Shown here piece after piece: positions 1 through 64,000 of a stretch of 64,000 nucleotides of DNA (its first letter is position 1; every line of letters starts with the position of its first letter). Source of the stretch: an uncultured Planctomycetaceae bacterium (lineage in GTDB: Bacteria > Planctomycetota > Planctomycetia > Isosphaerales > Isosphaeraceae); the NCBI GenBank assembly GCA_963833985.1, contig CAWIAD010000001.1, positions 864,001-928,000 on the forward strand, given 5' to 3'. The position numbers and the translations under genes were made by a program. Below the pieces are notes generated by a model that made no database searches, was not told the origin of the DNA, and saw only the letters and a list, made by a program, of their open reading frames with translations.

Positions 1-646
1 CCAGCGAGTTCTTCTTCTGCGACGTCACCGCGGCGCGGACGGCCAGCTCGAGCGCCTGGCCAATGGTCCTTGGCCCCTTGCCATCGGGCCAGAGCGTCCG
101 CTCGTCCACGGCTCCATAGGCTTCGGCCAGGGCAAGCATCGCGAAGCCGTGGTGGTACATGCTGTCGCCCATGATGCCCGTGCTGGAATCTTGCGACTTG
201 ATGAGCCAGCGCACGCTCCGGCGCACGTGATTGCTGTACTGGCCGAAATTGGGATCCTCGCCCGAAGCCAGGAAGGCGAGCAGGCTCAGCCCCACGGGGC
301 CCGGTCCTTCCTCGTAGCCCCCGCCGCTCCACTCCCCCTTGTCCGTCTGCTTCGACGCCAGGTACTGGAGGCCGTGGTCGTACATCTCGCGCACGTCGCG
401 CGGCACGACCTCGCCAAACTTCGGCCCGGGGAGCAGGTCTTGCGCACGGCATGCGGGACCGGTCATCCCGGCGACCAACGAGGCGAAGAGAATCGCCAGC
501 GCGGTGGCCAGCAACCGTCGGCAGCCTGGCACGTTCGCTGGCGAAGCAGGGACGATCGCCGCGGGGATCTCAGCCCGCCTGGTTGTTTCGCGGGCCAGAT
601 CGGCCGGTTCCCCCCTGGTTGTTGTGCAGGCAATGGCAAGGATCAT
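1..646 (-). CDS. Prenyltransferase/squalene oxidase repeat protein (runs off window edge)
   Basis: Not in the ORF track; translated by hand. ATG at 646 overlaps the upstream TGA (ATGA). Reads ...EMYDHGLQYLASKQTDKGEW...LAFLASGEDPNFGQY...MYHHGFAMLALAEAYG..., typical of planctomycete QW-repeat proteins. Confidence 0.8.
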   Translation of the reverse strand, partial: MILAIACTTTRGEPADLARETTRRAEIPAAIVPASPANVPGCRRLLATALAILFASLVAGMTGPACRAQDLLPGPKFGEVVPRDVREMYDHGLQYLASKQTDKGEWSGGGYEEGPGPVGLSLLAFLASGEDPNFGQYSNHVRRSVRWLIKSQDSSTGIMGDSMYHHGFAMLALAEAYGAVDERTLWPDGKGPRTIGQALELAVRAAVTSQKKNSL

Positions 647-1662
647 GGTTTCTGGACTTCCGCACTGAGGTGCGATCGCGAGACCCGCGGCAGGGACCCT
701 CGTCGCTTACCGCTTCGGTTCGGGTTTGGCAAAGACTTGCTCGGGAAGGTCCGGCACGGCGGGTCTGCGCCGGGAGCCCGGAGGCCGCGCAGTACCCCGG
801 CTGCGCCACGGTCCGCCTGGGCGTGCTGCGGCAGAAGTCCCTGGTTCTGAAGGAATCGCTCCATGCCCCGCGCCTGGTCGAGCTGCCGTTTCAGAAGGAG
901 CCACTGCCGCTCATCGAACAGCGGCTGCAAGCGCGCTGGCGAGACTTGACCGGCCATATACATCACGAGGTAATAATCATACTGGCCGAACCGCGTGGGA
1001 GTCTCGGTCTCGTTCAGGATCAGTTCCACCAGCCGGCGGCGCTGGTCGTCGCGCAAGCCCACCGACTGGTCAAGCTGGGCCACCACCAGCTCCACCTTGG
1101 CCTTGTAGCGGAACCGGTTCCTCTCGCACAGCACCTGCTTGCACCGGGCCAGCTCTGTCTCGGGGAGCACGCGGTGGACCGTCTTCCAGTACAGCGATCC
1201 TTCGTTGAACAGGCCCGAGCGGAGCGCCGCCTGAAGCGGCAGGATCTGCTGGTAGCTCTCGTTGAACTTGTTTTGATCATTCTTGATGTGAACGAGCAGC
1301 TTGCGTTTCTCTTCCACCTGGTCGAGAAACCGCTTGATGTCTCCCCGGCCGGCCAGCAGGAGCTTCTGCTTCTGGGAAGGCGAGAGAGCGCACATCGTGG
1401 CGACGTCCTCGACCTGGAGGACCAGCAGCGATTCGAGCCGGCTGCGCCCCGCCCGTGCCGTGCGCGATGACCCGAAGATCCACTGATCGAACTGATCGTC
1501 GCTCACCACGAGGACCTGCTGGCCCGGCAGCATGACTTCCTGCACGGGCTCTTCTTCCTCCTCGGTGACCACCTGGCCGGAGCAGGGCCGAGTCGAGCAA
1601 GCAACCGCCAGGCCAGCCAGACAGAGAAGCCAGCCAAAATGCAGATCGTGCCGGCAGGTCAC
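643..1662 (-). CDS. Secreted hypothetical protein with LTxxQ-like helical repeats
   Basis: C-terminal part of ORF 643..2256. GTG at 1662 overlaps the stop of the preceding gene (GTGA). Signal-like N-terminus; motifs CALSPSQKQKL, LRDDQRRRL, LFDERQW. Confidence 0.75.
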   Translation of the reverse strand: MTCRHDLHFGWLLCLAGLAVACSTRPCSGQVVTEEEEEPVQEVMLPGQQVLVVSDDQFDQWIFGSSRTARAGRSRLESLLVLQVEDVATMCALSPSQKQKLLLAGRGDIKRFLDQVEEKRKLLVHIKNDQNKFNESYQQILPLQAALRSGLFNEGSLYWKTVHRVLPETELARCKQVLCERNRFRYKAKVELVVAQLDQSVGLRDDQRRRLVELILNETETPTRFGQYDYYLVMYMAGQVSPARLQPLFDERQWLLLKRQLDQARGMERFLQNQGLLPQHAQADRGAAGVLRGLRAPGADPPCRTFPSKSLPNPNRSGKRRGSLPRVSRSHLSAEVQKP

Positions 1663-2606
1663 GGCCTTTTCCCCCCGGCGTCCCCGGCCTTCCCCGCGTC
1701 CGCCAGCTCCGGGTCGTCGAGCGGGTCGTTCTCCTGGTTGCCCGCGCCAAAGCTGAAACCCCAGAAGACATTGGTATTCCTGGGCACTCTTCGCCAGGCA
1801 TCCCGCTGCGGCTCGGTCAGTATCGGCATCACGAGCTGGTCGGGGATGCTGGGGAAGAAGTTCTCCAGGTTCATGAGCATCTCCAGCGACTGGCCCCAGG
1901 AATCTTTCCAGTTGGCCGTGAGCGAACGGACAAGCCGAATGCGCTGGTCGGCCGTGAGCATCAGGTCCTCGTCGAGCTTGGCGATCAGGTTGTCGATCAC
2001 GAGCTGCTTGCGGCTGGCGATGCGCTTCTCCAGTTCGGTCTTGTACCGGCCGACCTGTTCCGCGGAGAGCAGGGGGGTGATCGCCCTGGCCAGCTCCTGC
2101 TCCATGAGCTGACGCGGATCGGGATACTGGGAACCGGGCCGCCAGCCTCCGCGCATCATCTTCTGCTGCTCCACGACGAAGCTCTTCGCCGCGCCCCGGC
2201 TCACGCTTTCTCTGAGACGGGCCAGTTGCTTGCGCTGGTCCGTACTGAGGTCGCACGCGTTGCGAATGAAGTAGTACTCGCTGCGGAAGAGCGGACGGAA
2301 GTGCTGGACGTACTGCGCGGCCTGCGCATCGATGGCTGCCACGTTGCCGGCCTGCGCAGCGTGAGCCTGGGCCGGCAGCAAGGGTATGGCCCTGATCGCC
2401 TTCGTGACCTCGGCCGCCCTGAGCTTGACCGCAGCCTGCTTCTTCGCCGCGTCCGGACGGGCCGGCTGGACCGCTTTCTTCTGAACCGGCGGTTGGACCG
2501 GCGTGGCGGGAGTCAGAACATCCTGGGCGTGGCCGAGCACGAGCGTCGCAGCCGGAAACGCCGACGCGACGCTCACGAGCAGAAGCATGTCATGCAGCCG
2601 TCTCAT
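1659..2606 (-). CDS. Secreted hypothetical protein with LTxxQ-like helical repeats
   Basis: 315-aa ORF with signal peptide; motifs CDLSTDQRKQL, LTADQRIRL, ILTEPQRDAW; lies within the operon. Confidence 0.75.
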   Translation of the reverse strand: MRRLHDMLLLVSVASAFPAATLVLGHAQDVLTPATPVQPPVQKKAVQPARPDAAKKQAAVKLRAAEVTKAIRAIPLLPAQAHAAQAGNVAAIDAQAAQYVQHFRPLFRSEYYFIRNACDLSTDQRKQLARLRESVSRGAAKSFVVEQQKMMRGGWRPGSQYPDPRQLMEQELARAITPLLSAEQVGRYKTELEKRIASRKQLVIDNLIAKLDEDLMLTADQRIRLVRSLTANWKDSWGQSLEMLMNLENFFPSIPDQLVMPILTEPQRDAWRRVPRNTNVFWGFSFGAGNQENDPLDDPELADAGKAGDAGGKRP

Positions 2607-2627
2607 TCGCGACAGTCTCCCGCATGC

Positions 2628-5600
2628 TCATTGCCCGCCGGCGCCGCGCTCCAGCCGGTTGAAATACTCATCGAGCCCGGCTCGGAACTCCTCGGGCAGG
2701 GCCGGCCCCGACTGGCCTGTCGCCTGGGAGACGCCGTGATCCTCGCGGACTTCCTTCTGGTTCACGCCCGATCCCAGCAGCGCGAGGGCCGAATCAATGG
2801 TCTTGCCCGAGCCGCCCCCGCCCGGACTGGCGCCGCCACCACCGCCGCCCTTGGGATTGATGCGCTTCGATTTGAGGAGCAGCTCGATGGCCTCGGTCTC
2901 GGCCGCGATGGCTTGCGGGCCGGTATCCGGCTGGGCCAGGATGCCAGTCGCCTCGTTCATGACCCCGGCCACCTGGCCCAGCAGGCCGATCTCGTAGCCG
3001 AAGGCGGTCTCGGCATCGGGAAGCTGGCGAATGCGCTCGACCACCTTGTCCACCCGCACCTTGAGCTCGTCCTGGCTGTGCGAGAGCTGCACCGCCTGGC
3101 GCCCGTAATCCTCCGTGGAGATTGCGGTACGGGCCTGCTCGCCGACGCGCGTCTCCTCGCGCAGGCTGACTTCACCTTCGAGAATTTGCAGAACTTCCAG
3201 CACGATCGAGGGCGGCAAACTGCCGCGCGATTTGGCGCCCGGTCATGTGCCGCCCGAGACGGGGTCGACCAGGTCGTCGGCCCAGCGGTCGAGCGTGTCG
3301 GACCAGTACTCGCACTGGGCGATCGCCAGGCCCTCTTCCTTCTTGACCTCGTCGCTCAGGGACCGCAGGCTGCCGACCACGTCGAGCTTGCGCATTTCGT
3401 CGAGCACGGTCTTGAACTGGAGAAACCGCCGGCGCTCGAAGTAGGCGTGCATGTCATCCATGATCACCGATACCGTCTGGCTTCCCTTGGCTTCTTGCTG
3501 AGCCATCTCGGCGATCACCTTCGCGGCTGCGCCCGAGCCGCGGGCGCGGCCAGTCCGAAGGCGTCGCGCAGCTCGTCGATGAGCTTGCCGGCGACGGTGT
3601 ACTGTGTCCGCGAGGCCGCCTTCAGCCGCTTGACCAGCGTGCTTCCTTCCAGGTTGGCGAGCACCCGGTTCAGCTCGTCGGCGATCTTCTCGAACTCGGC
3701 GAGCAGGTCTTGCTGCTTGGCGACCGCCTCATCCAGCTTCTGACTCGTGGGGCAGGCCGCACTGTCCTTGCTCTTGCCGGGCAGCGTGGTCACCGGCAGC
3801 GTCAGCCGCGGCTGGCCGGCCGGCTTGGGCGGGGGCGGCGGGCCGGCGTTCTTGTCCAGCGGCTGCTGCGACGATTCGCGGTCGACCACCTGGGGTACTC
3901 CGGAGGCGGCCTTGGGCGCGTCCTTCGGATCCGGCGGTGCCGGGCCCCTGCGCGTGTCGCGCACCATGCCCGCCAAGGGCGTCGGCTTCCCCTGGGACGG
4001 CGGCGCGCTGGCCTGGGGAGACTGCGACGCCTGCCGCAGCAGGTCCGCCACGGTGGGTATGCGGTTGGCCGAGATGTCCTTGAGGATCTGTAGCATCTCG
4101 GCCCACTTCTCCAGGTGGCCCACGCCGAACTCGGGGTTGCGCATCGCCTGCTGCACCAGGTCTTCACCGCTGGCCACCAGGGTCGTCAGCCGGCGGCCAT
4201 TGCTCCGCTCGGCGTCGGCCTGGGTGTCGATCCGCCGCCTCACCTCGGGCCGATCCAGCTCGTCGGACGTCAGGCGCGGAGCTGCTTGTTGGTCTCGAAG
4301 AGCTGAAGCTCGCGGTCGCGCACCTCGAGCGACTGGCGATGCCAGCGGTTGAGCTGCTCCGTGATCCAGAGCGCGTGCTGCTCGGGGCTCATGACCACCA
4401 GCAGGTAGGCCGGCGAGTAGACCCGCCCGCGGCCCGGAAAGTAGTCCTCGGCGAAGACCCGCACATGCACCGGCTGTGGTTCGATGCCCAGCGACTTCGC
4501 CGAGAAGGCGCCGGCGAGCTCGAGGGCTTCCTTGTCCTGGCCACCAGCCGCCAGGATCCGCTCGCCTTTCGCCGGAGCCTTGACCAGCGATCCGGGGACC
4601 CCGCGCCATTCGATGCCGACCCGCTGGACGCCAAAATCGTCCTGGGCGCGGACCTTGAACTGGAGCGTCTCGGAATCGAGCACCACCTTCTGGCGGGGCA
4701 GGTTCTCGCAGGAGATCGACGGCGGCTCATCGTCCTTGCCGGTGATCGACAGCACGAACGGCGCCCGGCCCGCCAGGCCGAACTCGTCCTGCCAGCGGAA
4801 TTCCATGGTGCGGGTGCCGTCTACCAGGGCCGGCTCGCTGGCGAGGCTGGCGCCTTCAGGCTGCTGGGGCCGGCCATCGACGTCCGCGGCCTTCAACTCG
4901 CGGCTGGCAACGGCCGTGAACCGAGCCGTGGCCCCCTTGACGATCGCCACCGTTCCCCCGCGCACGTCCCTGTGCTGGGTGCCGCTCCGGCCCAGGTAGC
5001 CGGGAAGCATCACGTCCGCAACCACGGAGGTCAGTTCGGGCCGCAAGGTCGGCAGCACGCGCACGTGCTGGGACCAGTCGCCGATGCGGACGTCCATCCA
5101 GCCCGGGTCGATCTGAGCAGGCAGCTCGAACTGGTAGCCGCCGTCCGCGAGCGCGGCCGCGACGGGGCGCTGTTCGCCCAGGTTCGCCGTCCCCGCGCCG
5201 GGCCGCCAGGCCGTCTTCTCGGCCAGACGGGCCGCCACCGTGAAGGGCTCGCCATGCGCCACGAACATCCGCCCGGGCAACGGCTGCACGGCCGCGAAGG
5301 TGTAGCGGGGAATGGGTCTCCAGGGCGCCAGCAATCGCTTCCAGGCATTGCTCGCCGCGTCGGGGCAGAGAGCCGCCAGTCCGATCGCGCAGCACGCGCC
5401 GGCAGCCATCAGAGAGATCCAGAGCCGATGCCTGGGGTTGGGCACGGCGGCCCGGAAATCGCGGTGACGGGCGTCCTCGGCCACCTGGGCCACGGCCGCC
5501 TGGCAGAGCGCCCGCGACCGGGCCTGCTCGGCATCGCTCTCGACCAGCTCGATCACGCCCAGGAGCTGATCGCCGATGCGCGGTTCGTTGCGGCCCAGCA

Positions 5601-5892
5601 GCCGCGCTAATTGCTCCATGCGGCGGTGCCGCCAGACCCAGCGGTACAGCGCCAGCGGAACCAGGCCCATGCCCGCCCAGACGGCCAGAAAGAGGATCAG
5701 GCGGACCCAGCCCGGCGTGTCCCACGCACGGTCGACGGCAAAGAGTGCCAGGAACGCGACGAAGAGCCCGAACCCGGCCGCGGCCAGGGCCTCGGTCATC
5801 TTGATCGACCAGACCCGGCGGCGGTAGTCGCGCAACTGGCCCTGGAGGGAGTCGGGCAACTGGAGACGCTCGAGCGGAAGCTCTGTGCTCAT
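2628..5892 (-). CDS. Large membrane-anchored coiled-coil protein (DUF4175-like), ~1090 aa; candidate selenoprotein
   Basis: Continuous coding across ORFs 4270..5892, part of 3515..4609, 3243..3518 and 2628..3218. Two 1-nt frameshifts (~4272, ~3540) and one in-frame TGA at 3243-3245. N-terminal TM helices; C-terminus LPEEFRAGLDEYFNRL. Confidence 0.75.
3205..3231 (-). promoter_or_regulatory. Putative bacterial SECIS element downstream of in-frame UGA
   Basis: mRNA after UGA: CCGGGCGCCAA-AUCG-C-GCGGC-AGUUU-GCCGC-CCU-CGAU. 5-bp upper stem, GU-containing loop starting 22 nt after UGA, 4-bp lower stem. Confidence 0.6.
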
Positions 5893-5940
5893 GGCATCCT
5901 CACGATCGACGGGTCGCGAATCGTTCCCACGGCAGTCCTA

Positions 5941-8152
5941 TCATACGAGACCGATCACCTTGCGTCCCACCCAGAAAACTCCCAGCAGCACCACAATCGC
6001 GGCGCCCGCCACCGGGTGGCACCAGAGCTGGACCCTGCGCACCGAAGGGGGCGGATCGGGCAGCTCGGCGAGTGACCGGATCACCTCGTCCAGTTTGTCG
6101 GCCTCGATGACCTGGCCGCGCGTCACGCGGGCGATCTCATCAAGCACGTCCAGCCGCGCCGGGCGGCCCATCCGCTCGGCCGCGGAGCCTTGCACGAAGA
6201 AGCTGGTTTCCAGGGTCGCTCCGGTCTGCTTGCAGGCCAGGGCCAGCTCGTGCTTGCCCGGCTCCGACGGAGTGAACTGGCCGCTGAAGACGCCCCACTC
6301 CTCACCCGCGGAGACGAACTGCACCCGCTGGCTCTTGCCCGAAGGCGCCATGACAAGCGCCGACACCTCGCCCGACTTGAGCGGCTCGCCGGAACGCTCC
6401 ATGATGTTGGCGTGCAGCGAGACCGTCTGGTTGATCCTCGGCTGATCGGGCACGTAATACAGACGCATCGTCTCGCCCCGGGCCATGTTCCGCTGGTAGG
6501 CCATCCACCGCACCACCTGGCCCCAGAAGCGGTAGTGGTACTTGTCCTCCACTCCCTTGCGCCATCGCCAGGCGCCGTCGGTGCCCATGAACAGGACCTT
6601 GCCCGCGCCGAAGGTGCGGGTGGCCAGGAGCGGCAACCGGCCGTACTCATTGACCGCGTCCTTGTGCACGGCCAGCACCTCGCTGCCCGCCCTGGCGCGC
6701 AGCACCGGGGCATACCACTGGAAGCCGGGCAATCCTTCCCACACCTCCGCATTGTCGTCCTGGGTATCGGCCAGTTTGGTCAGCAGGCTGGTGCGGCCGC
6801 TCTCGGTGAGCTCGAAGTGGTTCGGTGTGCGCGAGCCCCAACCGTTCGGCTGGGCGGCGTCGAGCAGCACCGGGCAGAGGTCGCCCAGCTCGGTCTCCAG
6901 CAGCGATAACTCTCTTCCCTCCATGCCCGGCATGAACACCAGCCCGCTGGCCTGGTACTCCACCAGCCCCTTGATGAGCCGGCATTGCTCCGCGGTCAAC
7001 TGCTCGTCGGCCGTGCCCACGTCGCCCAGGAAGACCACGTCATACTTCGACAGCTCATCGAGGCCGGATGGGAACTGCTTGATGTAGTCCTTGTTGCCTC
7101 CGCCCACCTTCGAAAGCCCCGGGTGGAAGAGCAGGCAGGAGACCTCCACGCCCGGGTCGCGTGAGAGCGCGTTGCGCAGATAGCGGTATTCCCAGCGCGG
7201 GTACGACTCGATCACCAGCACCCGCAGCCGCTCCTCGCGGATCGAGATCGGCGCCGTCATGCGGTTGTTGTCGGCCAGCGTCTCATCGGGATGCCTGGGA
7301 ACTTCCAGGGTGAGCGTGAAGCTGCCGGTGGACCGGGGCTTCCAGACCATCCAGTCGCTGGTGCGGCTCATGGGCGCGATCTTCACCTCGCGCGTCACCT
7401 CGTCGCCGTCGGAGCTGCGCAGGGTGACGCTGGTCAGGTATTCGCGCGGCAGGGCACTGTCGATGGTAAAGGGGATCCGCACCGACTTGCCGGCCACGCC
7501 GAAGGTAGGGGCGTCGAGCGTGAGCAGCTCGACATCCGGCAGGCGGCTGGCACTTCCCGCGGGAACCACGAACACGGGCACACCGGCAACCCGCAGGCGC
7601 GCCGCGGCCTGCACCGGCGGGGGGCCTTCGTTCCAGTCGCCATCAGAGGTAAGCACCACGCCGCGCAGGTTGGGAATCCGCTCCAGTGCCCGCGCGTAGA
7701 GGCTCATTCAGGTCGGTCCCGTGTCCGGGCCTCTGCGGTGAGAATGCCTGGATGATCACGTTCCTGCGCTCCCGCAGCTTCGTCCACGTGCCCGGATCGC
7801 CCAGGGGCGCGACGGCCTCGCGCCGGGTGAGCAGCGAGGGCGCCGGGCTGGAGCCGCCCTTGCCCCGGACCACCACGTCGCGCGTGTCCATGCTGGGCGA
7901 CGCGTCGTGCAGCACGGCCACCGCGGGCTGCTCCTCGGGACGGTATTCCTCGACCCACTCCGGCTGGTTCAGGACCAGGGCGGCAATGATCACCAGGCAG
8001 AGCCGCACCAGCTCCAGGAGCCCCATCCCGCGGTGGTAACCGCTCCGCCGCCAGGCCACCACGCCGAGCACCGCGGTGATGGTCACCAGCACCACCGAGA
8101 GGGCCAGCGACCAGGGCGTCCAGAGGAAGGCCAGCGACCGGGAGACGCTCAT
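5941..8152 (-). CDS. vWA / glutamine-amidotransferase-like domain membrane protein (frameshift ~7695)
   Basis: ORFs 7643..8152 (TM helices, VLHDASPSM MIDAS-like motif) and 5941..7707 (VVLTSDGDWN, PRWEYRYLRNAL, DGAWRWR) join into one typical planctomycete vWA protein. Confidence 0.8.
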
Positions 8153-10128
8153 GCCGCCCCTCCCGCCGGACGCCGGCGCGGCAGGCAGAGGCCGGCCTCG
8201 ACCACCATCGCCACCATCATCGCCACCAGGAAGACGCGCCAGATTTCCTGGATCAGCCCGCTCACGCTGCCGGCACGGTCGTCGATCCGGGTCCAGTCGA
8301 GGCCGCGCACCAGGCCGGCCAGGCGGGAGTCGCTCACCACGCCGGCCAGGTCCTCGGCCCGCACCCGGCGCACGGCCAGGAGCCGCTCTCCCGAGCGGTA
8401 GACGCCGCAGTGGAAAGGATAATCCGTGGAGAGCCCCTCGTCGTTGCCCGTCACCCGCTTCCAGCCGGACGGGTCTTCACCCGCGAGGTTGCCGGCCGTG
8501 AGCTCTCGGGTATTCCCCAGCACCTTGGCTCCCTCCGCCAGGGCACGCTGTACGAGCACGTAGAGCACGACCCCGCCGCTGGCCAGCGAGGAATCGCCCA
8601 CCGCGGGCGTGGTTGCGCAGAAGTAAGCGCCGCCGGCCGTCGCGGGCACCCGGCCCAGCAGGGTCTCGCCCCCGCGCAGGCTGGCCAGAACCACCAGGTC
8701 GCCGGCGAGGCCGCAGTATCTCCGCACCTGGAGCTGGCCCACCGGCAAGGGTCCTCCGCTCTGCGTCTGCGCCAGCAGGTCCTGGTCGCCCCGCCAGCCC
8801 TGGACGGTGGCTCCCTGCGGCGGTGCCACCCAGGTTGTCCAGTGAACGCCCTGAAACTCTTCCGGCCCGGGGCTGCGCGGTGGCAAGAAGACGACCTGCC
8901 CGCCCCGGGCCAGGAAGGCCGTGATCCGCTTCGCCGCCTCGCCGGTGGGCATGGGCGCTTGCCAGAGCAGGAGCGAGACCTGCTCCCACTCCACGGTTCC
9001 CAGGGCGTCGGCCGCAACGACCTCCGCGGAGCACTTCACCGCCGGATCCGGCGGAATCGCCGCGGCGAGCTGGAGCGGCCGGGCGGCCTGCGGGTCCTCG
9101 GCCACCACGACCGCCTTCCGCAGTGGCGGCTCGTCGAAGACGAACCAGTCGTCGTTGTCGGCCGGGTTGGCGTCGGCCGGGATCGAGACCTTACCCCAGC
9201 CGCGCACCTGGCTGCGCTCCAGCGGGATACGATGGTCCTTGAGCTCGAAGGTGGGCCCGGCCATCTCCACGGAGAGCTCGGAGCGGGCCCCGTCGATCTC
9301 GAAGTGCACGGGGACCGACGCGCGCGTCTCGGCCCCTCCCTCACGGCTGATCCATAGCGACACGAAAAGCTCGGCGCCCGCCGCCGTGGGCTGGCGCCGC
9401 ACCCCGGTGACGCGCACGGCCATGTTGTCCGGGGCCGTCTCGGGATAGGCCAGCAGGTGGAACCGAACCGCCTGCGGGAGCTCCAGGAAGCCGTCGCGCA
9501 GGCTCTGCCAGCGGCCGCTCTCGGCGTTCCAGTCGTTCTCGCGCAGGTCGGAGCAGATCCAGACCTCGGTGCGGCCCGGCTTGTTGGCGCGTACGTAATC
9601 GCGTGCGGCCAGCAGCATGGCCGGCAGATCGGACGCGGCGCCGACCGGCTCGGCGCTGGGCGAGGTCAAGAGCGCCGCGGGAGAGTCCAGCGCGCGCGGC
9701 AGATTGGCCGCGCTCTCGATCAGCACCCAGTGCGCCGAGCCGAGGGTCTCGAGCGCCCGCACGAGCTGCCTGCGCCCGGTGTCGAGCTTCGACCCGACAC
9801 CCCCCGCACCCGCCTGCTGCATGCTGGGCGAGCGGTCGAGCACGATGATCGTGGTGTCCGGCCGTGTGCCCGCCGCCAGGCCCAGCCAGCCGCCCGCCAG
9901 GGGCCTGCTGATCGCGAAGACGAGCCCCGCAATCACGGCCATCCGGAACGCCATGATCAGCCACTGCCGGAGCCGAGCGTAACCACGCGACATGCGGTTG
10001 GCTGCCAGCAGGAACATCATCGCCGCCCAGCGGATCGTCTGGAAGCGCCGCTGGTTGATGAGGTGGATGATGATCGGCAGTGCGATCAGGGGCAGCGCAA
10101 GCAGGAGCATGGGCTGGAGAAAGCTCAT
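8149..10128 (-). CDS. BatA (aerotolerance regulator N-terminal) + vWA domain protein
   Basis: N-terminus MSFLQPMLLLALPLIALPIIIHLINQRR...WAAMMFL; VLDRSPSM; C-terminal TM helix. Confidence 0.88.
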   Translation of the reverse strand: MSFLQPMLLLALPLIALPIIIHLINQRRFQTIRWAAMMFLLAANRMSRGYARLRQWLIMAFRMAVIAGLVFAISRPLAGGWLGLAAGTRPDTTIIVLDRSPSMQQAGAGGVGSKLDTGRRQLVRALETLGSAHWVLIESAANLPRALDSPAALLTSPSAEPVGAASDLPAMLLAARDYVRANKPGRTEVWICSDLRENDWNAESGRWQSLRDGFLELPQAVRFHLLAYPETAPDNMAVRVTGVRRQPTAAGAELFVSLWISREGGAETRASVPVHFEIDGARSELSVEMAGPTFELKDHRIPLERSQVRGWGKVSIPADANPADNDDWFVFDEPPLRKAVVVAEDPQAARPLQLAAAIPPDPAVKCSAEVVAADALGTVEWEQVSLLLWQAPMPTGEAAKRITAFLARGGQVVFLPPRSPGPEEFQGVHWTTWVAPPQGATVQGWRGDQDLLAQTQSGGPLPVGQLQVRRYCGLAGDLVVLASLRGGETLLGRVPATAGGAYFCATTPAVGDSSLASGGVVLYVLVQRALAEGAKVLGNTRELTAGNLAGEDPSGWKRVTGNDEGLSTDYPFHCGVYRSGERLLAVRRVRAEDLAGVVSDSRLAGLVRGLDWTRIDDRAGSVSGLIQEIWRVFLVAMMVAMVVEAGLCLPRRRPAGGAA

Positions 10129-11036
10129 CGCGCCCCCTTCGCCCGGGCCCGGCCCACGAGAAATCGCATGAGCACCTGCTCGTAATCGTCATCAATCCGC
10201 ACACGGTGGTAATCGACGGCCGATTCCAGCACCACCTGGCGAAGCCCGTCAAGGTAGCCATCGAGCGCCTTGTGGTAGCGCTCGGCGATCTCATTCGGCT
10301 CGGCGAAGAGGGCCGGTCCCCCCTCCATGTCAAGGAAGCGCATGGGCCGGCGAAAGTCGAAGCTCAGCTCGCGCGGGTCGAGCAGGTGGAACACGGCCAC
10401 GTCGTGCTTGCGGAAACTCAGGTGCTGGAAGCAGCCGCGCAGCAGCTCAGGCTCCACGAACAGATCGGAAAGGATGATGCAGAGCGCCCGCTGCCGCACC
10501 GTCTCGGCCAGCTCGTGCAACACCGGCACAAGCTGGGTCTCACCCCTGGCCTGCGTCTGCTCCAGCACGTCGTACACGGCCGTCAGGTGCGCTGGGTTGC
10601 GCCGGGGCGGGATGTTGCGAACCACGCCTTTGGCCACGCACGCCAGGCCGACCGCGTCTCCCTGGTTGAGCGCCAGGTGCGCGATGGCACCGGCCAGCCT
10701 GCGGGCGTACTCCAGCTTGGAGACTCCCTGCGAGCCAAAATCCATCGACCCGCTGGTATCCAGCATCAAGCAGCAGCGCAGGTTGGTGTCGGCCTCGAAT
10801 TCCTTCACGAAGAACCGGTCCGAGCGGCCGTAGGCGCGCCAGTCCAGCCGCCTCAGATCGTCGCCCGGCACGTACTTGCGGTACTCGGCAAACTCCACGC
10901 TCGATCCCCTGTGCGGGCTCGGATGCCGCCCCGATACCGTTCCCAGCATCGGTCTACGCGCCGCCAGGGGCACGCTCGAGAGACGCGAGAGCACGCCCGG
11001 ATCCAGAAAACTGCGCTGCCGGCGATCGGGGAACAT
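10125..11036 (-). CDS. DUF58 domain protein
   Basis: GSSVEFAEYRKYVPGDDLRRLDW, VKEFEADTN, LDTSGSM; likely start ATG at 11036. Confidence 0.92.
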   Translation of the reverse strand: MFPDRRQRSFLDPGVLSRLSSVPLAARRPMLGTVSGRHPSPHRGSSVEFAEYRKYVPGDDLRRLDWRAYGRSDRFFVKEFEADTNLRCCLMLDTSGSMDFGSQGVSKLEYARRLAGAIAHLALNQGDAVGLACVAKGVVRNIPPRRNPAHLTAVYDVLEQTQARGETQLVPVLHELAETVRQRALCIILSDLFVEPELLRGCFQHLSFRKHDVAVFHLLDPRELSFDFRRPMRFLDMEGGPALFAEPNEIAERYHKALDGYLDGLRQVVLESAVDYHRVRIDDDYEQVLMRFLVGRARAKGAR

Positions 11037-11173
11037 CGGAAAACCCTGTCTCGCGTATCGATGGACATGAAGCCGATCAGATTCTGGTTCCACACCGCGG
11101 ACGCCACGTGCCGGGTCACGCAGACCCGATCACCGCGGGCTCCCGGTATCGCCCGCCGCGCGCCCCGCCCCGG

Positions 11174-12200
11174 TCAAGCCTCCGTCGCGGTCTCCTCCAC
11201 CAGCCTGCGCGATTTGCTTGGCGTCAATGCCCTCGGCCTGCGCGGCGAAGGTGGTGATGATGCGGTGCGTCAGGACCGGCACGGCGACTTGCTGGATGTC
11301 TTCCAGGCGGACCATGTAGCTGCCCAGGAGCGCCGCACGCGCCTTGGCACCAAGTATCAGGTACTGCACGGCACGCGGACCGGCGCCCCAGGAGACCAGC
11401 GGCTTGAGCCACGAAGGCGCCGTCGGCGTCCCTGGCCGCGTCTTCCGCGCCAGCCGCGCCGCGTAGGCGTAGATGTGGTCGGGGACAGGTACCCTCCGCA
11501 CCAGGCTCTGGTGCGCGATCACCTCGGCCGGCGTCATCAAATGATCGAGACGGGGCAATGCCTCCCCAGTCGTCGTGCGCGCAATCTGGATCTCCTCGGC
11601 TTCCGAGGGGTAGTCCAGCTCGATCAGGAACATGAATCGGTCGAGCTGGGCCTCGGGTAGAGGATAGGTTCCCTCCTGCTCGATCGGGTTCTGCGTCGCG
11701 AGGACGAGGAACGGCTCATCGAGCGGGAATGCCTTGCCCACCACGGTCACGTTGTGCTCCTGCATCGCCTCGAGCATCGCCGCCTGGGTCTTCGGTGGTG
11801 CCCGGTTGATCTCGTCGGCCAGGACGATGTTGGCGAAGACCGGCCCGGCCACGAACTCGAACTCGCGCTTGCCGCCGGCCATGTCCTGAAGGATGTCGGT
11901 CCCGGTGATGTCCATGGGCATGAGGTCGGGCGTGAACTGGATGCGGCTGAACTTCAGCGACATCGTCTCGGCCAGCTTGCTCACCAGCAGCGTCTTCGCC
12001 AGGCCCGGCACGCCCATCAGCAGCGCATGGCCGCGGCCGAAGAGGCAGATGGCCAGCCGCTCGATCACCTCGTGCTGGCCGACGATCACCCGGCCAATCT
12101 CCGTGCGCAGCCGCGCGTACACCTCGCGCAGGTGATCGATCGCCTGAACGTCGTTGTCGCTCAACCGATCGTGCGGTGTCGCGGTCGCTGACTGCGCCAT
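11174..12200 (-). CDS. MoxR family AAA+ ATPase (C-terminal frameshift ~11205)
   Basis: Walker A GVPGLAKT, RIQFTPDLMP, LADEINR, ATQNPIEQEGTYPLPEAQLDRF. GGGGAG RBS before ATG 12200. Corrected frame ends RLVEETATEA* at 11174. Confidence 0.93.
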
Positions 12201-12830
12201 GAAGCGGCTCCCCAGGTGTGTTCCCCTGGAATAGTGCCCTGAAGCGGCTCGGATATTCCCTTTTTCTTGTGCCGTTGTACTCGGTTCCATCGACAAAAGT
12301 CAAAGGGACTTCGTGACGGGGCCGGCATTGCCGTGGGTCCCCGAACGAAATCGAACTTACAGGGCGGTGATGCTGCTCGCAAGTGGGCTTTGCAAAGCCT
12401 TTTCGCGCAATGCGCAGGGCATCCCGCCGGGCCGGCTGCCGGCAGGCGTCGAGGCACTTCCCGGGATGAAAATAATGCTCCTTGCTCCCAGGGCGGCTCG
12501 GGCGGCGAGCGGCGAAGGCGGAGACGAGGGCCGCTGGAGGTGCAGGTCACCCCTGGTTTTTCCGCCGTGGCCACGCTGGAATACGGATTCGATCGGTGCG
12601 GCGTGCGTACGGATGCCCCGGCGAGCCCTGGGAGGCAGGCGCCACGTTCCAGAGCTCAGGATGAACGCCCTCGCTCACGCCTCGACCACGCAGCGCGCCA
12701 ATGCCTCGACGTCGCCCGAGGACCCGGAGAGGACCGAGACCCCAGGCGCCGGCTTTGGCCTCGTTAGCACGCTCCCGCGCCCGAATAGTCCGGAATGTTC
12801 GCCTGCCCGGACACGAATGAGCAGGACGAG

Positions 12831-12869
12831 GACGCAGAGAGAATCAAGAACTGGACGCGTCCCCGTTTT
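12831..12869 (-). repeat. REP-like dispersed repeat, copy A
   Basis: Reverse complement AAAACGGGGACGCGTCCAGTTCTTGATTCTCTCTGCGTC matches 14214-14252 at 30/39 positions. Confidence 0.6.
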
Positions 12870-13024
12870 ACTTTCCCGGAAGAGATCTGCGGGGTACGAG
12901 TTGTTCCCGTTTTCTCCCCGGATGGCCGTGGATACTTGCCCTTCGATTCCGCGGGAAGGCATCGGTAATCTGAACATAATTGGCCAAAAAAAAATCGACG
13001 ACCATCACAAGAGAGGTAACAATA

Positions 13025-14191
13025 ATGAGTGGTGGTGATCCTTCTGTTGCCGGAGCCGTGCGGTGCAGACGCTTCGTCAGGGTCTTTAAGACCGTGCTCA
13101 CGCTTCCCATGATCCTGTGCGGAAGCCGTGCCACGAAGCTGGCCAAGCAATCGAGCGGAGACTCATGGGTGGGCAAGCGCGTCATCACACAGTTCGGGAC
13201 CCTCCTCCAGGTCGGCGGCCAGGTGGTCGATGACGCAGGCCGCGGCAAACAACTGGCACGGGGCAGGGACAATCAAGTTTTCCGCATCTACAAGGTCGAA
13301 CAGTTGAACGGCCCCTGGCTCTGGCTGGTGGCCGAAGGGTCCGGGGTGAAGGGCTGGGCCCCCGCCGTGAATGTCATCCCCTTTGACCATGCCATCGATT
13401 ACCTCACAAACAGGATCCGCGCGAACCCAGGCGCCACTGCCAACTACCTCTGGCGGGCCCATGTCTGGAGGGCCAGGAAAGAGTACGACATCGCCATCAC
13501 GGATCTCAACGAAGCGATCCGGATCGATCCGGGATTCGCTGCGGCCTACAACAACCGCGGCAACGCCTGGAGAGCCAAGAAGGAGTACGACAAAGCTATT
13601 GCGGATTACAACGAGGCGATCCGAATCGATCCGGGATTCGCTGCGGCCTACTCCAACCGCGGTCTCGCCTGGAGTGACAAGAAGGAGTACGACAAAGCTA
13701 TTGCGGATTACAACGAGGCGATCCGGATCGATCCGGGATTCGCTATAGCCTACTACAACCGCGGTGTGGTCAAATTAATCACCGAGAGGTCCGGGGCTGT
13801 CGAGGATGCTCGACGTACGTATGAGCTGAGCGGGACTAAGGGTGAACTGGCTCCCTATGCCGTCATCGTCGGGTACCTGGGGGCACGCCGTCAGGGCCAC
13901 GACCAGGACGCTCGAACCACGCTCAACCAAGGAGCGAATCTCGACTCCTCCGCCTGGCCCGTGCCGATCGTGCGGTTCTATCGTGGCGAGCTTTCGCGGT
14001 CTGACATGATGGCACCCGCTACCGACAACGACAAGCAGACGGAAGCCCATTGCTTCCTGGGCTATGAGCGATTGCTGGCCGGCGACAGGTCTGCCGCCCG
14101 CCAGCAGTTCGAGTGGGTTCGCGACCACGGGAATCCGCGTTTTACCGAGTACACGATGTCGCTTGCCGAGCTGGAGAAGCTCAGCCGTTAG
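13025..14191 (+). CDS. Tetratricopeptide repeat protein (SH3-like N-domain, NlpI-like C-terminus)
   Basis: GAGAGG RBS before ATG 13025; canonical TPRs AYNNRGNAWRAKKEYDKAIADYNEAIRIDP; C-terminal WPVPIVRFYRG...EAHCFLG...FTEY. Confidence 0.88.
   Translation: MSGGDPSVAGAVRCRRFVRVFKTVLTLPMILCGSRATKLAKQSSGDSWVGKRVITQFGTLLQVGGQVVDDAGRGKQLARGRDNQVFRIYKVEQLNGPWLWLVAEGSGVKGWAPAVNVIPFDHAIDYLTNRIRANPGATANYLWRAHVWRARKEYDIAITDLNEAIRIDPGFAAAYNNRGNAWRAKKEYDKAIADYNEAIRIDPGFAAAYSNRGLAWSDKKEYDKAIADYNEAIRIDPGFAIAYYNRGVVKLITERSGAVEDARRTYELSGTKGELAPYAVIVGYLGARRQGHDQDARTTLNQGANLDSSAWPVPIVRFYRGELSRSDMMAPATDNDKQTEAHCFLGYERLLAGDRSAARQQFEWVRDHGNPRFTEYTMSLAELEKLSR
13507..13764 (+). repeat. Intragenic 102-bp tandem repeat (~2.5 copies) encoding TPR units
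   Basis: Units start at 13507, 13609 and 13711; units 1 and 2 differ at 9 of 102 nt. Confidence 0.92.
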
Positions 14192-57813: not shown

Positions 57814-60800
57814 GTGTTCACGCGCTTCTTCATTGAACGGCCGATCTTCGCCTCGGTCCTGTCCATCGCGATCACCCTGGCGGGGGGGCTGGCGCTCATG
57901 GCCTTGCCGATCGCCATGTTCCCCCTGATCGCGCCGCCCACGGTCTCGGTCACTTGCCAGTATCCCGGTGCCAGCGCGCAGGTCGTTGCCGAGACGGTGG
58001 CTGCACCCATCGAACAGCAGGTCAACGGCGTCGAGAACATGATGTACATGTCGTCGGCCTGCACCAACGACGGCAACTACACGCTGACAGTCACGTTCAA
58101 GCAGGGCATCGACATGAACCTGGCCCAGGTTCTGGTCCAGAACCGGGTCTCGCTCGCCGTGCCCCTCTTGCCGGACGTGATCAAGGCCACCGGCGTGACC
58201 ACCAAGAAACGCTCGCCCGACATCCTGCTTGCCATTGGTCTCTACTCGCCGCAAACCCCGGATTATCCCAACGGCCGCTACGACCAGCTTTATTTGAGCA
58301 ACTACGCCTACATGCGGGTGCGCGACGAGATGGCCCGGCTGCCGGGCGTCAGCGACGTCACCATGTTCGGCCAGCGCGACTACAGCATGCGCATCTGGCT
58401 GGACCCGGACAAGCTTGCCCAGCGGTACATGACCGCAGGCGATGTGGTGCGGGCCCTCCGCGAGCAAAACCTTCAGGTTGCCGCCGGCTCGGTGGGCCAG
58501 TCCCCGATCGTCCGCGGCCAGCTCACGCAGGTGACCATCAGCACGCTCGGCCGCCTGGTCGATGCCGACCAGTTTGACAAGATCGTCATCAAGACCACCC
58601 GCGACGGCCGAATGGTCCGCATTCGCGACGTCGGCACCGTGGAGCTGGGTGCCAAGAACCAGGACATGAGCAGCGCCGTCGGCGTCCTGGACGAGCAGGG
58701 CGAGCTGCATGTCTACCCGGTGGCCAACCTGGCCATCTTCCAGCTTCCTGACGCCAACGCCCTGGAGACGGCGGACCTGGTGAAGGCCAAGATCGAGGAG
58801 CTCAAGAAAGAGTTCCCCGAGGGCGTCGACTACATGATCCGCTACGACACCACTCCGTTCATCCGCGAATCGATCCAGGAAGTGTTCAAGACGCTGCTCG
58901 ATTCGGTGATGCTCGTGGCGCTCGTGGTGCTGCTCTTCCTCCAGAACTGGCGCTCGGCGCTGATTCCGCTCATCGCCGTGCCGGTGGCCATTATCGGCAC
59001 CTTCGCCGTCATGGCGGCGTTCGGCTTCTCCCTCAACAACCTCACGCTATTCGGCCTGGTGCTGGCCATCGGCATCGTGGTGGACGACGCCATCGTGGTG
59101 GTGGAGGCCGTCGAGCATCACATCGAGCGCGGTATGGCGCCCAAGGAAGCGACGCTCCAGGCCATGAGCGAGGTCTCCGCGCCGGTGATCGCGGTGGGGC
59201 TGGTGCTCACGGCCGTGTTCGTGCCATGCGCGTTCATCTCGGGAATCACTGGCCAGTTCTTCCGCCAGTTCGCGCTCACGATCGCCTCCTCGACGGTCCT
59301 CTCCACCATCAACTCGCTCACCCTCAGCCCGGCGCTGGCGGCCCTGCTATTGCGCCGCGCCAGCCGGGCGAGCACCATGCCCTGCCGCGGCTGGCATTTG
59401 CGGCGCTGGGGGCATGGCTGGGGTATGTCTGGATCGGTCCATATGTCCTGCCCTACATGCAACATTCCGGGCTCATGAGCCGCACTGTCACGGCCAGCAT
59501 TCTGCCGGAGGTGAACGGCGAGTCCGCACTCACGCCCGCGGTCGCCGCCGGGATTGTGGGGGGCCTGATCGGCGGCCTTGTCGGCTGGCTGCTGAGCAAG
59601 ACCTGCAACTGGCTGCTCGGCAAGTTGTTTGACCTCTTCAACCTCGGGTTCGCGGCCACGGCCGGGCTCTACACCCGCGTGATCAGCGGCATGCTTCGCG
59701 TGTTCGTGCTGGTGTTCCTGGTTTACGTGGGCCTGCTGTTCCTCACCGGGCAGAAGTTCAGCAGCACCCCGCGCGGGTTCATCCCCTCGCAGGACATGGG
59801 CTACATCCTGGTCAATATCCAGCTCCCAGACTCGGCCTCGCTGGAGCGCACCCAGCGGGTCATCCGGCAGATCAACGAAATCGCGGTGCGGACCGATGGC
59901 GTTTCGGCCACTGTGGGCATTGCCGGACAGTCGCTCTTGCTGAACGCCTTCGGGTCGAACTTCGGCACCATGTTCGTGACTCTCAAGGAGTTCAAGGAGC
60001 GGCCCGCGCCCGGCGGAGCGTTCTTCAAAGCCGAGAACTGGCTGCGGAAGCAGCTGGGCTTGAAAGAGAAGAAGGACGTGCCCGACGTCTACTACGAGGT
60101 CATCCTGAACAAGCTCCGCGGGCAACTCGGCAAGCTCATTCCCGAGGCCAACATCGCGCTCTTCGGCCCTCCCCCGTTGCGCGGGGTCGGGCGGGCCGGC
60201 GGCTGGATGGTCATGATGGAGGACCGCGGCGACCTCGGTGCCCCGGTGCTCCAGAAAGAGGTGGAGAACCTCGTCCGCAAGGCGAACGAGGGCATCGACG
60301 TGAATGGTGCCCGGATCGTGCGCACGCCACCCCAGCCGGGAAAGCCGCCGGCACCCGGCCCGCAATCGGCCGTCATGGGGCTGGCGTCCGTCTTCCGGGC
60401 CAACATTCCCCAGGTCTACCTTGACGTCGACCGCACGGCCTGCATGCTCAAGGGGGTGCAGCTTCAGGATGTGTTCATGACACTGCAAGCCTATCTCGGC
60501 TCGCTCTACGTGAACGACTTCAATCGCTTCGGCCGCACCTGGCAGGTAATCGTCCAGGCCATGCCCAAGTACCGCGACCAGAAGGACGACATCAGCCGTT
60601 TGCAGGTGCGCAACAACCGCGGCACGATGGTGCCCCTTGGCGCAGTGGCCTCGGTGCGGGAGATCAACGGGCCGCTCGTACTCACCCGCTACAACATGTA
60701 TCCGGCGGCGTCCATCAACGGCATGGCGGCGCCGGGTGTCAGCTCCGGCAGCGCGATCCACGCCATGGAACAGCTCTCCAACACCGAGCTTCCCCAGTCC

Positions 60801-61514
60801 ATGAGCTACGAGTGGACCGAGATGGCTTACCTCGAGCTGCTGGCCGGCAACACGGCGATCATCGTCTTCGGCTTCTCGATCGTGATGGTCTTCCTGGTGC
60901 TGGCCGCCCAGTTCGAGAGCTGGGCCATGCCGCTGGCGGTGATTCTGTCAGTGCCCCTGTGTATGCTCAGCGCCCTGTTCGGCGTGACCAACGCCAAATG
61001 GCTCGGCGCCAACAACACCAGCCTCGATATCAATATCTTCACCCAGATCGGCCTGGTGGTGCTGGTGGGACTGGCCAGCAAGAATTCGATCCTCATTGTC
61101 CAGTTCGCCAAGCTCATCCGCCACCGCGGTTACCCGATCCGCGAGGCCACTCTGGAGGCCTGCCGGCTGCGGCTGCGGCCGATCATCATGACCTCGATGG
61201 CCTTCGTCCTGGGTGTCATGCCCCTGCTGTACGCCCACGGAGCAGGGGCCGAGATGCGGCAGTCGCTGGGAGTGGCCGTCTTCAGCGGCATGATCGGCGT
61301 GACCTTCTTCGGAGTCATGCTCACCCCGGTCTTTTTTTACGTCATCGATTCGGTTGCCGAATCCCATATCTTCAGCAACCCCAGGGTGCGGCGGGTCGGG
61401 AAGATCCTGCTGGCGATCCTGCTGCCCGTGGTTCTCCTGCGTGAGCTCTTCCGCTTCAGCACCCGCCGGGCGTCGACAAGACTCGCCAAACCCAACAAGA
61501 ACGAAGAGCTGTAA
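57814..61514 (+). CDS. RND (HAE1) efflux permease 1, frameshift ~59355
   Basis: RFFIERPIFA, GIVVDDAIVVVE, LSPAL, GLASKNSILIV, RLRPIIMTS. Confidence 0.92.
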
Positions 61515-61546
61515 CTCTTCGATCACTCACTCTGTGAGGACTCGCC

Positions 61547-64000
61547 GTGTTCTCGCGCTTCTTCATCGACCGCCCGATCTTCGCCTCGGTCCTGTCGATC
61601 ATGATCACGCTGGCGGGAGGCATCACCCTCTTCACGCTCTCGGTGGCGCAGTATCCCGAGATCACGCCCCCGACCGTGGAGGTCTCGGCCTACTATCCCG
61701 GGGCGAACGCCCAGGTCGTCGCCGATACCGTCGCCGCGCCCATCGAGCAGCAGGTCAACGGCGTCGAGAACATGATGTACATGTCGTCGCAGTGTACCAA
61801 TGACGGCACCTACATCCTGACCGTCACCTTCAAGCCGGGCGTCGACCTGAACATGGCCCAGGTGCTGGTGCAGAACCGCGAATCGCTGGCCGAGCCGATC
61901 CTCCCGGACCTGGTCAAGCGGCGCGGCGTCGCGGTGAAGAAGAAGTCGCCCAGCATCCTCATGATCATCAACGTCTTCTCTCCCGACGGCTCCAAGGACA
62001 ACCTTTACCTCAGCAACTACGCCACCATCCAGCTCCGTGACGAGCTGGCCCGGCTTGACGGCGTGGGCGACATCACCTACATCGGCCAGCGCAATTACAG
62101 CATGCGGGTCTGGCTGGACCCGCAGAAGATGACGTTCCGCAACCTCACCTCATCGGATGTGGTCAACGCCATCCAGCAGCAGAACATCCAGGTGGCCGCC
62201 GGCCAGCTTGGCCAGCCGCCGGTCTCCACCGGGCAAGCCTTCCAGTTCACCATCACCACGCTCGGGCGGCTCAGCGACACCGAACAGTTCTCCGAGATGA
62301 TCCTCAAGACCGACAACCTGGGCGGCGTCGTCCGGCTCCGCGACGTGGGCCGGGTGGAGCTGGGCGCGCAGGGCTACGACCAGGAATGCACGCTCGACGG
62401 CCGCCAGACCGTCGCCCTGTCGGTTTATCAACGGCCAGGATCCAACGCCCTGGAGACCGCCAAGCTGGTCCGCCAGAAGATGGAGGAGCTCAAGGAACGG
62501 TTCCCCGAGGGCGTGGATTACGCCATCGTCTATGACACCACGCCGTTCATCACCGAGTCGGTCGCCGAGGTGTTCAAGACGTTGCAGGACGCCGTCGTGC
62601 TGGTGGCCATCGTCGTCCTGCTCTTCCTCCAGAACTGGCGTTCGGCGCTGATTCCGCTCATCGCCGTGCCGGTGGCCATCATCGGCACCTTCGCCGTCAT
62701 GGCGGCGCTCGGATTCTCGCTCAACAACCTGACGCTCTTCGGCCTGGTGCTGGCCATCGGCATCGTGGTGGACGACGCCATCGTGGTGGTGGAGGCCGTC
62801 GAACACCATATCGAGGCGGGGCTGAAACCGCGCGAGGCCACCATCAAGGCCATGGACCAGGTCTCCGCGCCGGTGATCGCGGTGGGGCTGGTGCTCACGG
62901 CCGTGTTCCTCCCCTGTGCCTTCATCACGGGGATCGTGGGCCAGTTTTACCGCCAGTTCGCGCTCACGATCGCGACATCGACGGTGATCTCCGCGTTCAA
63001 CTCGCTGACCCTGAGCCCCGCGCTTTCGGCCCTGCTGCTGCGGCCCCGGCAGAAGGGCGTGTACCAGGCCCTGCCGCGGCTGGCCTTCGTGGCCATTGGC
63101 TGCTGGGCCGGCGCCACAGCGCCGGCGCCCTACCTAGGCACCTGGGGCGAACACATCCTTCCCGAACGCGTCGAGGCCCTGCGCGGCCTTGCCCTCTTAC
63201 GTGACGCTGAACCATGTCTTCTCGGCCGCCGGTGCGGTGCTTGGCGGGCTAGTCGGCTGGCTCGTGAGCCGGCCCCTGAACGCGGTCATGGGCTGGTGCT
63301 TCTACCAGTTCAACCGCGGCTTCGACGCCGCGACCGGCATCTACACCCGCATCGTCAAAGGCTTGCTTCGCGTTGGCCTGGTGGTCCTGGTGATCTACGG
63401 CGGTCTGCTCTACCTGACCTACTGGGGCTTCACGCGCACCCCCACGGGCTTCATCCCCGCCCAGGACAAGGGTTACCTGCTGGTCAACGTCCAGCTTCCC
63501 GACTCGTCGTCGCTCGATCGCACGAAGACGGTGATGCGGCACGTCGAGGCCGTCGCCGACAAGATGCCCGGCGTCACGCACACCCTGTCAATCGCCGGCC
63601 AGTCGATCCTGATGAACGCCAACGCGCCGAACTTCGGCGCCATGTACGTCATGCTCGACGACTTTCACGCCAGGGCAGAGAAAGGCCTGACCGGCCCGGT
63701 GGTAGCGGGACAGGTCCAGGCGGCGCTTCAGAACGAGATCCAGGACGGTCTGGTCAACGTCTTCGAGGCGCCTCCGGTGGACGGCCTGGGGACCGCCGGC
63801 GGCTTCAAGATCGTCATCGAGGATCGAGGCGATCTGGGCACGAGGGAGCTCGAGACGGTGGCCAACAACGTCGTCGCCTCCGGCAACGCCGATTCCCGAC
63901 TCCAGGGGCTGTTCACCAGCTTCCGGGCAAACACACCCTGGCTCTACCTGGACATCGACCGCGAGAAGGCCAAGCTGCTGGGCGTCTCCATCGCCGAGCT
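61547..64000 (+). CDS. RND (HAE1) efflux permease 2, frameshift ~63183, runs off window
   Basis: Translated by hand from GTG 61547: FSRFFIDRPIFA...GIVVDDAIVVVE...GFIPAQDKG; paralogous to permease 1. Confidence 0.9.
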   Translation, partial: MFSRFFIDRPIFASVLSIMITLAGGITLFTLSVAQYPEITPPTVEVSAYYPGANAQVVADTVAAPIEQQVNGVENMMYMSSQCTNDGTYILTVTFKPGVDLNMAQVLVQNRESLAEPILPDLVKRRGVAVKKKSPSILMIINVFSPDGSKDNLYLSNYATIQLRDELARLDGVGDITYIGQRNYSMRVWLDPQKMTFRNLTSSDVVNAIQQQNIQVAAGQLGQPPVSTGQAFQFTITTLGRLSDTEQFSEMILKTDNLGGVVRLRDVGRVELGAQGYDQECTLDGRQTVALSVYQRPGSNALETAKLVRQKMEELKERFPEGVDYAIVYDTTPFITESVAEVFKTLQDAVVLVAIVVLLFLQNWRSALIPLIAVPVAIIGTFAVMAALGFSLNNLTLFGLVLAIGIVVDDAIVVVEAVEHHIEAGLKPREATIKAMDQVSAPVIAVGLVLTAVFLPCAFITGIVGQFYRQFALTIATSTVISAFNSLTLSPALSALLLRPRQKGVYQALPRLAFVAIGCWAGATAPAPYLGTWGEHILPERVEALRGLALLRDAEPCLLGRRCGAWRASRLAREPAPERGHGLVLLPVQPRLRRRDRHLHPHRQRLASRWPGGPGDLRRSALPDLLGLHAHPHGLHPRPGQGLPAGQRPASRLVVARSHEDGDAARRGRRRQDARRHAHPVNRRPVDPDERQRAELRRHVRHARRLSRQGRERPDRPGGSGTGPGGASERDPGRSGQRLRGASGGRPGDRRRLQDRHRGSRRSGHEGARDGGQQRRRLRQRRFPTPGAVHQLPGKHTLALPGHRPREGQAAGRLHRRA

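Follow-up and report, generated by a model that had tools for sequence, protein, structure and literature searches.

A UGA codon inside a MoxR/DUF58/vWA operon of an uncultured planctomycete is, on comparison of homologous sequences, very probably (about 0.95) decoded as selenocysteine (Sec) by SelB, tRNA-Sec and a hairpin within the open reading frame. It is highly likely that the codon is decoded in this way and that the loop residue it encodes is also chemically active. The gene represents a genuine selenoprotein family that has not been catalogued; its decoding is standard and its protein is unusual. The original prediction of Sec is supported by a TGA/Cys column among homologues, a hairpin specific to the TGA forms and the presence of sel genes. 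In the window (the whole 64,000-nucleotide stretch of DNA that was analysed), the open reading frames 3243..3518 and 2628..3218 lie on the minus strand in one frame and their sole break is the TGA at 3243-3245, as had been predicted. The features around the codon are the following.

3243..3245, minus strand: in-frame UGA, the proposed Sec codon (residue 883 in the intact orthologue of genome G002), in a TGA/Cys column and at constant spacing from the hairpin
2628..5892, minus strand: whole gene, approximately 1,088 codons, with three membrane helices, Ig-like domains, helical bundles and a Gly-rich tail; two frameshifts in the assembly
3212..3226, minus strand: apical stem-loop of the putative SECIS, GCGGC-AGUUU-GCCGC, with the GUU triloop closed by an A-U pair and the loop 21 nt 3' of the UGA
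3205..3231, minus strand: whole hairpin including a less conserved lower stem, from RNAfold and pair counting

The proteins of intact relatives were mostly 1,080–1,110 amino acids (aa) long. The predicted membrane-anchored protein of approximately 1,090 aa is intact only in these relatives, because the gene is frameshifted near 4270 and 3545 in this assembly. The upstream neighbour has a frameshift near 7697, and three were counted in the 13-kb cluster as a whole in comparison with genomes G002 and G004. These three frameshifts could suggest that the TGA itself is a nonsense mutation, a basecall error or part of a pseudogene in this strain. We consider this extremely unlikely: both in-gene frameshifts lie in short G or C runs and are apparently one base short of in-frame reading, and frameshifts in such runs are typical of long-read errors. 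In sequencing-run data, one contig of a relative showed an additional base behind 4276. The two frameshifts are probably sequencing errors, and a basecall error at the TGA is unlikely, given that the identical codon occurs in 16 other genomes and in 76 metagenome loci. The copy of this one strain is possibly a pseudogene, which would leave the family unaffected. At the far end of the window, positions 57898-64000 on the plus strand, which resemble an RND-type efflux gene region, were divided into several ORF pieces, which accords with frequent indels in this assembly.

The search for homologues returned 107 loci, from which 10 duplicates, one misaligned locus (L118) and four loci unaligned across the site were removed. 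Among the remaining 92, the column held TGA in 17, Cys in 58 and neither in 17, i.e. TGA or Cys in 75/92, with Cys in 58 of the 75 non-TGA loci. TGA and Cys occurred in one continuous gene, as expected for a selenoprotein. Twelve of the 17 loci with neither residue had no Cys anywhere in the loop, and many distant relatives had acidic or Gly-rich loops; the loop residue is thus not essential across the family. The loop contained at least two Cys in 50/58 Cys loci and three to four in 26/58, whereas the Sec forms had no other loop Cys (17/17). With the full-length protein as the query, all of the best 120 matches read through the site, and the 119 parsed loops all had Cys and none U. In 57 of these 119 proteins there was only one loop Cys. 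The Cys-rich motif before SLPP that the original prediction mentioned is thus real but variable, being present in the 50 loci and not in these 57 proteins, and we abandoned the view that it is a multi-Cys motif that Sec replaces in every case.

With the 882-aa upstream part as the query, 120 proteins were obtained among the matches listed, 80 of them new, and 76 of these 80 end exactly at the column (protein records, which give termini and not codons). One of them, RefSeq WP_246196390.1 (888 aa, named Aquisphaera giovannonii), has its C-terminal end at the site. In hairpin-bearing metagenome loci, with the third base of the codon left free, the codon was TGA in 76/77 and TGC in one.

Trees built without the loop required nine changes for the TGA forms among 88 rows. 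Constraining 15 TGA forms as one clade versus 21 others was rejected (p-AU 2e-8, 36 chosen rows). Two Cys-type copies in genome G003 (L017 and L036), which keep the distal Cys described below, were nested among the TGA forms; they look like a recent Sec-to-Cys change. Two of the 17 TGA loci, L019 and L042, were near copies, and the record of L042 is titled as an alphaproteobacterial bin, so the sel genes found there may belong to another organism. For L042, L092, L096, L107 and L117, record titles (Alphaproteobacteria, Chitinophagaceae, Kuenenia, Akkermansia) and tree neighbours disagreed, and misbinning is likely.

The hairpin had been drawn from the sequence, and RNAfold of 56 nt recovered it at 3231-3205 with −21.6 kcal/mol. 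Its stability was not significant against shuffled sequences (z-score −1.06; 30/200 shuffles folded equally well), and a loose SECIS rule, which proved too permissive, was satisfied at 152/416 coding-like UGA sites genome-wide. For these two reasons the hairpin alone is weak evidence, and the case rests on comparison. The bSECIS consensus criteria, taken from section 5 of PMC13188914, were a loop of 3–9 nt, a stem of 4–16 bp, a G in the first two loop positions, a distance of 16–37 nt from the UGA and a minimum free energy ≤ −7.5 kcal/mol. The element lies within these limits, with a loop of AGUUU or GUU, a stem of 5–6 bp, a distance of 21 nt and −19.0 kcal/mol.

The hairpin tip GGCAGTTTGCC followed the codon at a distance of 21 nt in 17/17 TGA loci versus 0/58 Cys loci, and the hairpin codons were used in 0/19 of the Cys loci with the same xGSLP peptide. 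The synonymous third positions at the close of the stem were able to pair in 17/17 TGA loci versus 6/19 of these Cys loci. The closing pairs in the TGA loci were C-G (14), G-C (1), A-U (1) and U-G (1), which is the covariation that had been proposed as a check, and the pair also held in 67/67 distinct metagenome TGA sequences. Pair counting gave 99.0% paired cells for the upper helix and 89.7% for the lower helix (AUCG/CGAU), so that the apical stem of the proposed structure is conserved and the lower stem is less so. The AGT-TTG dicodon was confirmed as unusual: in the long ORFs of the genome it encodes Ser-Leu in 80 of 14,790 cases (0.54%). RNAalifold with the upstream flank chose a different structure, without two-sided changes; we retained the apical hairpin because pair counting and the Cys-form control support it. 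Judged by this comparison, the hairpin is a SECIS element under selection. The Rdx/SelW gene of the source genome (G000) has an identical AGUUU loop at the identical 21-nt offset, and its AhpD-like gene has AGUUU at 16 nt. In one Cys form (L075), whose genome has sel genes, the full stem persists around an AGCCT loop and is possibly a SECIS relic.

Were the UGA a real stop, the downstream 196-aa part would be a separate gene starting at the conserved TTG. This is very unlikely. The TTG of the tip is invariant in 17/17 TGA forms and databases contain upstream products of 880–890 aa, both as expected for a split gene, but this first in-frame start 3' of the UGA (3218-3216) lies inside the hairpin tip and the anti-SD duplex test upstream of it gave only −2.3 kcal/mol. 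The original prediction had noted that the downstream half has only a TTG and no RBS, and SD-like pairing was absent in most cases. Moreover, the seven codons between the UGA and the AGT-TTG loop keep P-G-x-K-S-x-G in the TGA forms; their variation is mostly synonymous and without indels, which indicates that they are translated. Continuous orthologues have Cys at the column, and TGA forms were found only alongside selB.

Sec was also found at a second position, which the original prediction did not contain. Among 401 genomes searched, three from other classes (G161, G127 and G492; loci L141, L152 and L153) had the TGA four codons earlier. Their hairpin tip lies 36 nt downstream and also carries AGT-TTG, and all three genomes have selA and selB. 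An extra strong hairpin was observed between the UGA and the AGT-TTG tip in these loci. Of the 150 best-matching representatives at the 50% identity level, 11 proteins terminate at the column and 14 after GPG, four residues before it; one further protein ending at the earlier position was seen outside those 14.

The source genome (96% complete) contained selA, selB, selC (tRNA-Sec, anticodon UCA) and selD, as the original prediction had asked of it; the search for selD covered this genome, and the gene has its own UGA. In the 17 TGA genomes, selB was found in 17, full selA in 16 and tRNA-Sec in 14, compared with selB in 20, selA in 21 (E<1e-40) and tRNA-Sec in 20 of 55 non-TGA genomes (many of these genomes are incomplete bins, and related ones do not count as independent). 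No TGA form without selB was found among the 17 TGA genomes and the second-position genomes. The 88-row tree offered just three independent pairs, and no test on it was significant.

A stricter scan of the source genome covered 114,189 open-flanked UGAs and gave 77 matches, of which the majority are probably due to chance. The matches include formate dehydrogenase, SelD, Rdx/SelW, AhpD-like and peroxiredoxin-like genes. Loci L136, L137, L138 and L140 (G000:C2) are selenoprotein genes of known type, comprising an Rdx/SelW gene adjoining selD, an AhpD-like gene, a peroxiredoxin-like gene with UxxC and formate dehydrogenase alpha. The SelB C-terminal domain was matched a second time, over a short stretch, in a 56-aa frame approximately 2.4 kb from selB (L012, G000:C2:831935-832024). 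Paralogous small membrane ORFs with CxxU (L133:961-1227, minus strand; L134:1167-1352, plus strand) each carried a hairpin, with AGTTT or AGTCT, at 18 nt from the UGA, and the one that was scanned had no family match. Another small membrane ORF (L135:1122-1418, minus strand) had a CU motif, a GGTCC hairpin 21 nt after the UGA and no family match. A secreted-looking 185-aa protein with a CYRU motif (L139:792-1346, minus strand) had no strict hairpin and no family match. Another MoxR/DUF58/vWA operon of the same genome encodes a 240-aa Sec/Cys protein (L132:8189-8908; G000:C2:6016188-6016907, plus strand) with the loop U-Q-G-C, a hairpin 19 nt downstream and no Pfam or NCBIfam family. In loci parsed by pattern, its column was TGA in G000, G007, G009, G052 and G060 and Cys in G013, G016, G030, G035, G056 and G059; one of the TGA genomes also has two additional copies, both with Cys.

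The AlphaFold2 model (mean pLDDT 77, pTM 0.56) contained three membrane helices, beta-sandwich domains at residues 208–501 and then helices, with no beta-strands over residues 503–1082. Hydropathy and charge counts also gave three membrane helices and placed the C-terminal part outside. The Ig-like domains and tandem four-helix bundles are accordingly modelled outside the cytoplasmic membrane, and Sec883 is predicted to lie in an exposed, low-confidence linker (877–887) between two four-helix bundles. Fold searches gave only generic matches, to Ig-like repeats and to four-helix bundles (the latter with Z up to 14.6), and Pfam and NCBIfam assigned no family. The gene is embedded in the following neighbours.

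11130..12200, minus strand: MoxR AAA+ ATPase (AAA_3), domain match
10125..11036, minus strand: DUF58/vWA protein, domain match
8149..10128, minus strand: protein with the BatA N-terminal (two_anch) domain, domain match
5941..8152, minus strand: upstream neighbour, a membrane protein of approximately 732 aa in relatives, vWA-like and weakly GATase1-like, with the frameshift near 7697
1..2606, minus strand: three genes downstream that stay with the cluster, two of them secreted-looking and without family; the G002 orthologue of the third has a weak squalene-hopene cyclase-like match

All eight neighbours were present in 5/6 loci of 17–18 kb, and the neighbours fitting in the flanks recurred in 33–50 of 51 loci of at least 12.5 kb. 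No sigma-70-like promoter was found within 1-13,200 of the window. Bat proteins have been proposed to form a periplasmic complex that handles reducing power, and bat deletion in Leptospira biflexa left oxidative-stress survival unchanged (accessible text of PMC3557215).

A second feature absent from the original prediction was a Cys that co-varies with Sec.

3752..3754, minus strand: distal Cys codon (Cys713 in G002 numbering), 170 residues upstream of Sec, the candidate Se-S partner

The distal Cys was present in 14/15 TGA loci versus 2/65 others, both exceptions being in G003, and in 49/52 readable metagenome TGA loci. Of 200 proteins, 180 were parsed, and it occurred in 56/63 Sec-type versus 3/117 Cys-type proteins, leaving seven Sec-type proteins without it. 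A FastTree phylogeny built without the Cys713 and Sec sites forced at least 11 switches; it gave 11 independent pairs, 8.1 agreeing and 0 opposing (median p 0.008). In the second-position type, the distal Cys was absent in 2/2 readable loci and the link is weaker. In a co-evolution analysis of 114 sequences by MI-APC, no usable contact emerged for Cys713. Both residues are in low-confidence stretches of the models (pTM 0.48–0.56), in which a straight helix could separate them.

The tracking of Sec by the distal Cys suggests a Se-S redox pair. In the proposed mechanism, an inner-membrane-anchored protein of approximately 1,090 aa would be made by reading the UGA as Sec via SelB, tRNA-Sec and the hairpin. 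Sec would then act as a redox-active nucleophile, passing repeatedly through a selenenylsulfide formed with Cys713 of the same or of another chain, and Cys-type orthologues would use a lone Cys or local CxxxC/CxxC groups in place of this pair. The MoxR/DUF58/vWA (Bat-like) envelope complex would thereby gain a thiol-disulfide switch or relay. We give about even odds to such a Sec883-Cys713 cycle, located outside the inner membrane and acting as a redox switch or relay for the MoxR/vWA complex. Evidence against it comes from the many relatives without the loop residue, from the Sec-type proteins without the distal Cys and from the unchanged oxidative-stress survival of the L. biflexa bat mutants.

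It is rather doubtful that Sec is inserted for a loop that binds a metal or hands it over in a MoxR/vWA-assisted step. The Cys forms do include CCxxCxxC clusters (with the 26 loci of three to four loop Cys noted above), the protein of the second MoxR operon has a U/C-x-G-C loop, and a postulated role of MoxR is to supply the MIDAS site of Bat proteins with metal (accessible text of PMC3557215). However, the Sec forms and 57/119 Cys forms have a single Sec or Cys in the loop, which leaves too few ligands for a conserved metal site. A mainly regulatory use, in which selenium supply would set the ratio of the full-length protein to an 882-aa form without the last bundle and the tail, is unlikely, although the site is at a domain boundary, the loop residue is dispensable in many relatives and the Sec position can move by four codons. 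Chemistry rather than regulation is indicated because the column is specifically Cys in the 58 of 75 non-TGA loci and the distal Cys co-varies with Sec.

Returning to the redox pair, we tentatively extend it to a wider picture, in which planctomycete MoxR/vWA envelope complexes might be selenium-using redox machines. The protein would be a non-enzymatic scaffold with a Sec/distal-Cys switch at the bundle hinge, swapped at least 11 times with a Cys-type loop, with Sec at two positions under one SECIS tip and a second MoxR operon with its own Sec/Cys protein; the Se-S bond might gate a conformational step of the ATPase-driven complex. Sec usually marks a chemically active residue (PMC13188914, sections 7–8), and the finding thus points to one residue pair in the MoxR/DUF58/vWA cluster. 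It hints that a poorly understood envelope gene cluster may do redox chemistry. It also adds a widespread selenoprotein family whose proteins gene finders shorten at the apparent stop, as in the RefSeq entry currently cut at the site. The repeated Sec/Cys swaps between close relatives, with the tracking distal Cys, offer a natural test of Sec retention.

Table 1 of PMC13188914 (2026; 119 families) contained no fit when compared by description or motif, and 'Planctomyc' and 'DUF4175' did not occur anywhere in the text of that paper. The nine new families in the accessible part of PMC12013277 do not fit by name. With no match in NCBIfam either, the original statement that no described family is of this type stood. 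Our literature search, which covered mainly the main text of open-access papers, returned no report of this planctomycete selenoprotein family, of a selenoprotein in MoxR/DUF58/vWA (Bat) operons or of a Sec form of a DUF4175 protein.

DUF4175 proteins have an N-terminal membrane anchor and a long helical, low-complexity C-terminal part. In layout, which is the extent of the comparison, the planctomycete protein fits this description, and it is similar to DUF4175 (PF13779) in size. The N-terminal piece gave a weak match, but its score was below the curated cut-off (19.3 versus 27.3 bits), and 0/44 full-length members of the planctomycete family matched DUF4175 at E≤0.01. UniRef names Singulisphaera orthologues 'DUF4175 family protein', and the fourth-ranked ESM Atlas cluster has DUF4175 in 37% of its members. 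As in Bat operons, genes for MoxR, DUF58/vWA and BatA-N proteins lie in order upstream of the Sec gene. Of the BatA–E set, only the BatA N-terminal model matched among the 11 ORFs scanned, and the planctomycete cluster has the giant Ig/helical protein and other genes instead. Thioredoxin-fold selenoproteins combine that fold with UxxC or CxxU, whereas this protein has neither and lacks a second loop Cys in 17/17 Sec forms. As in other bacterial SelB/bSECIS genes, such as the E. coli formate dehydrogenases, the UGA has conserved coding sequence on both sides. Unlike in the known bSECIS selenoproteins, Sec here occupies one of two alternative positions in a linker between bundles of a membrane-anchored scaffold, and is accompanied by a co-varying Cys 170 residues away.
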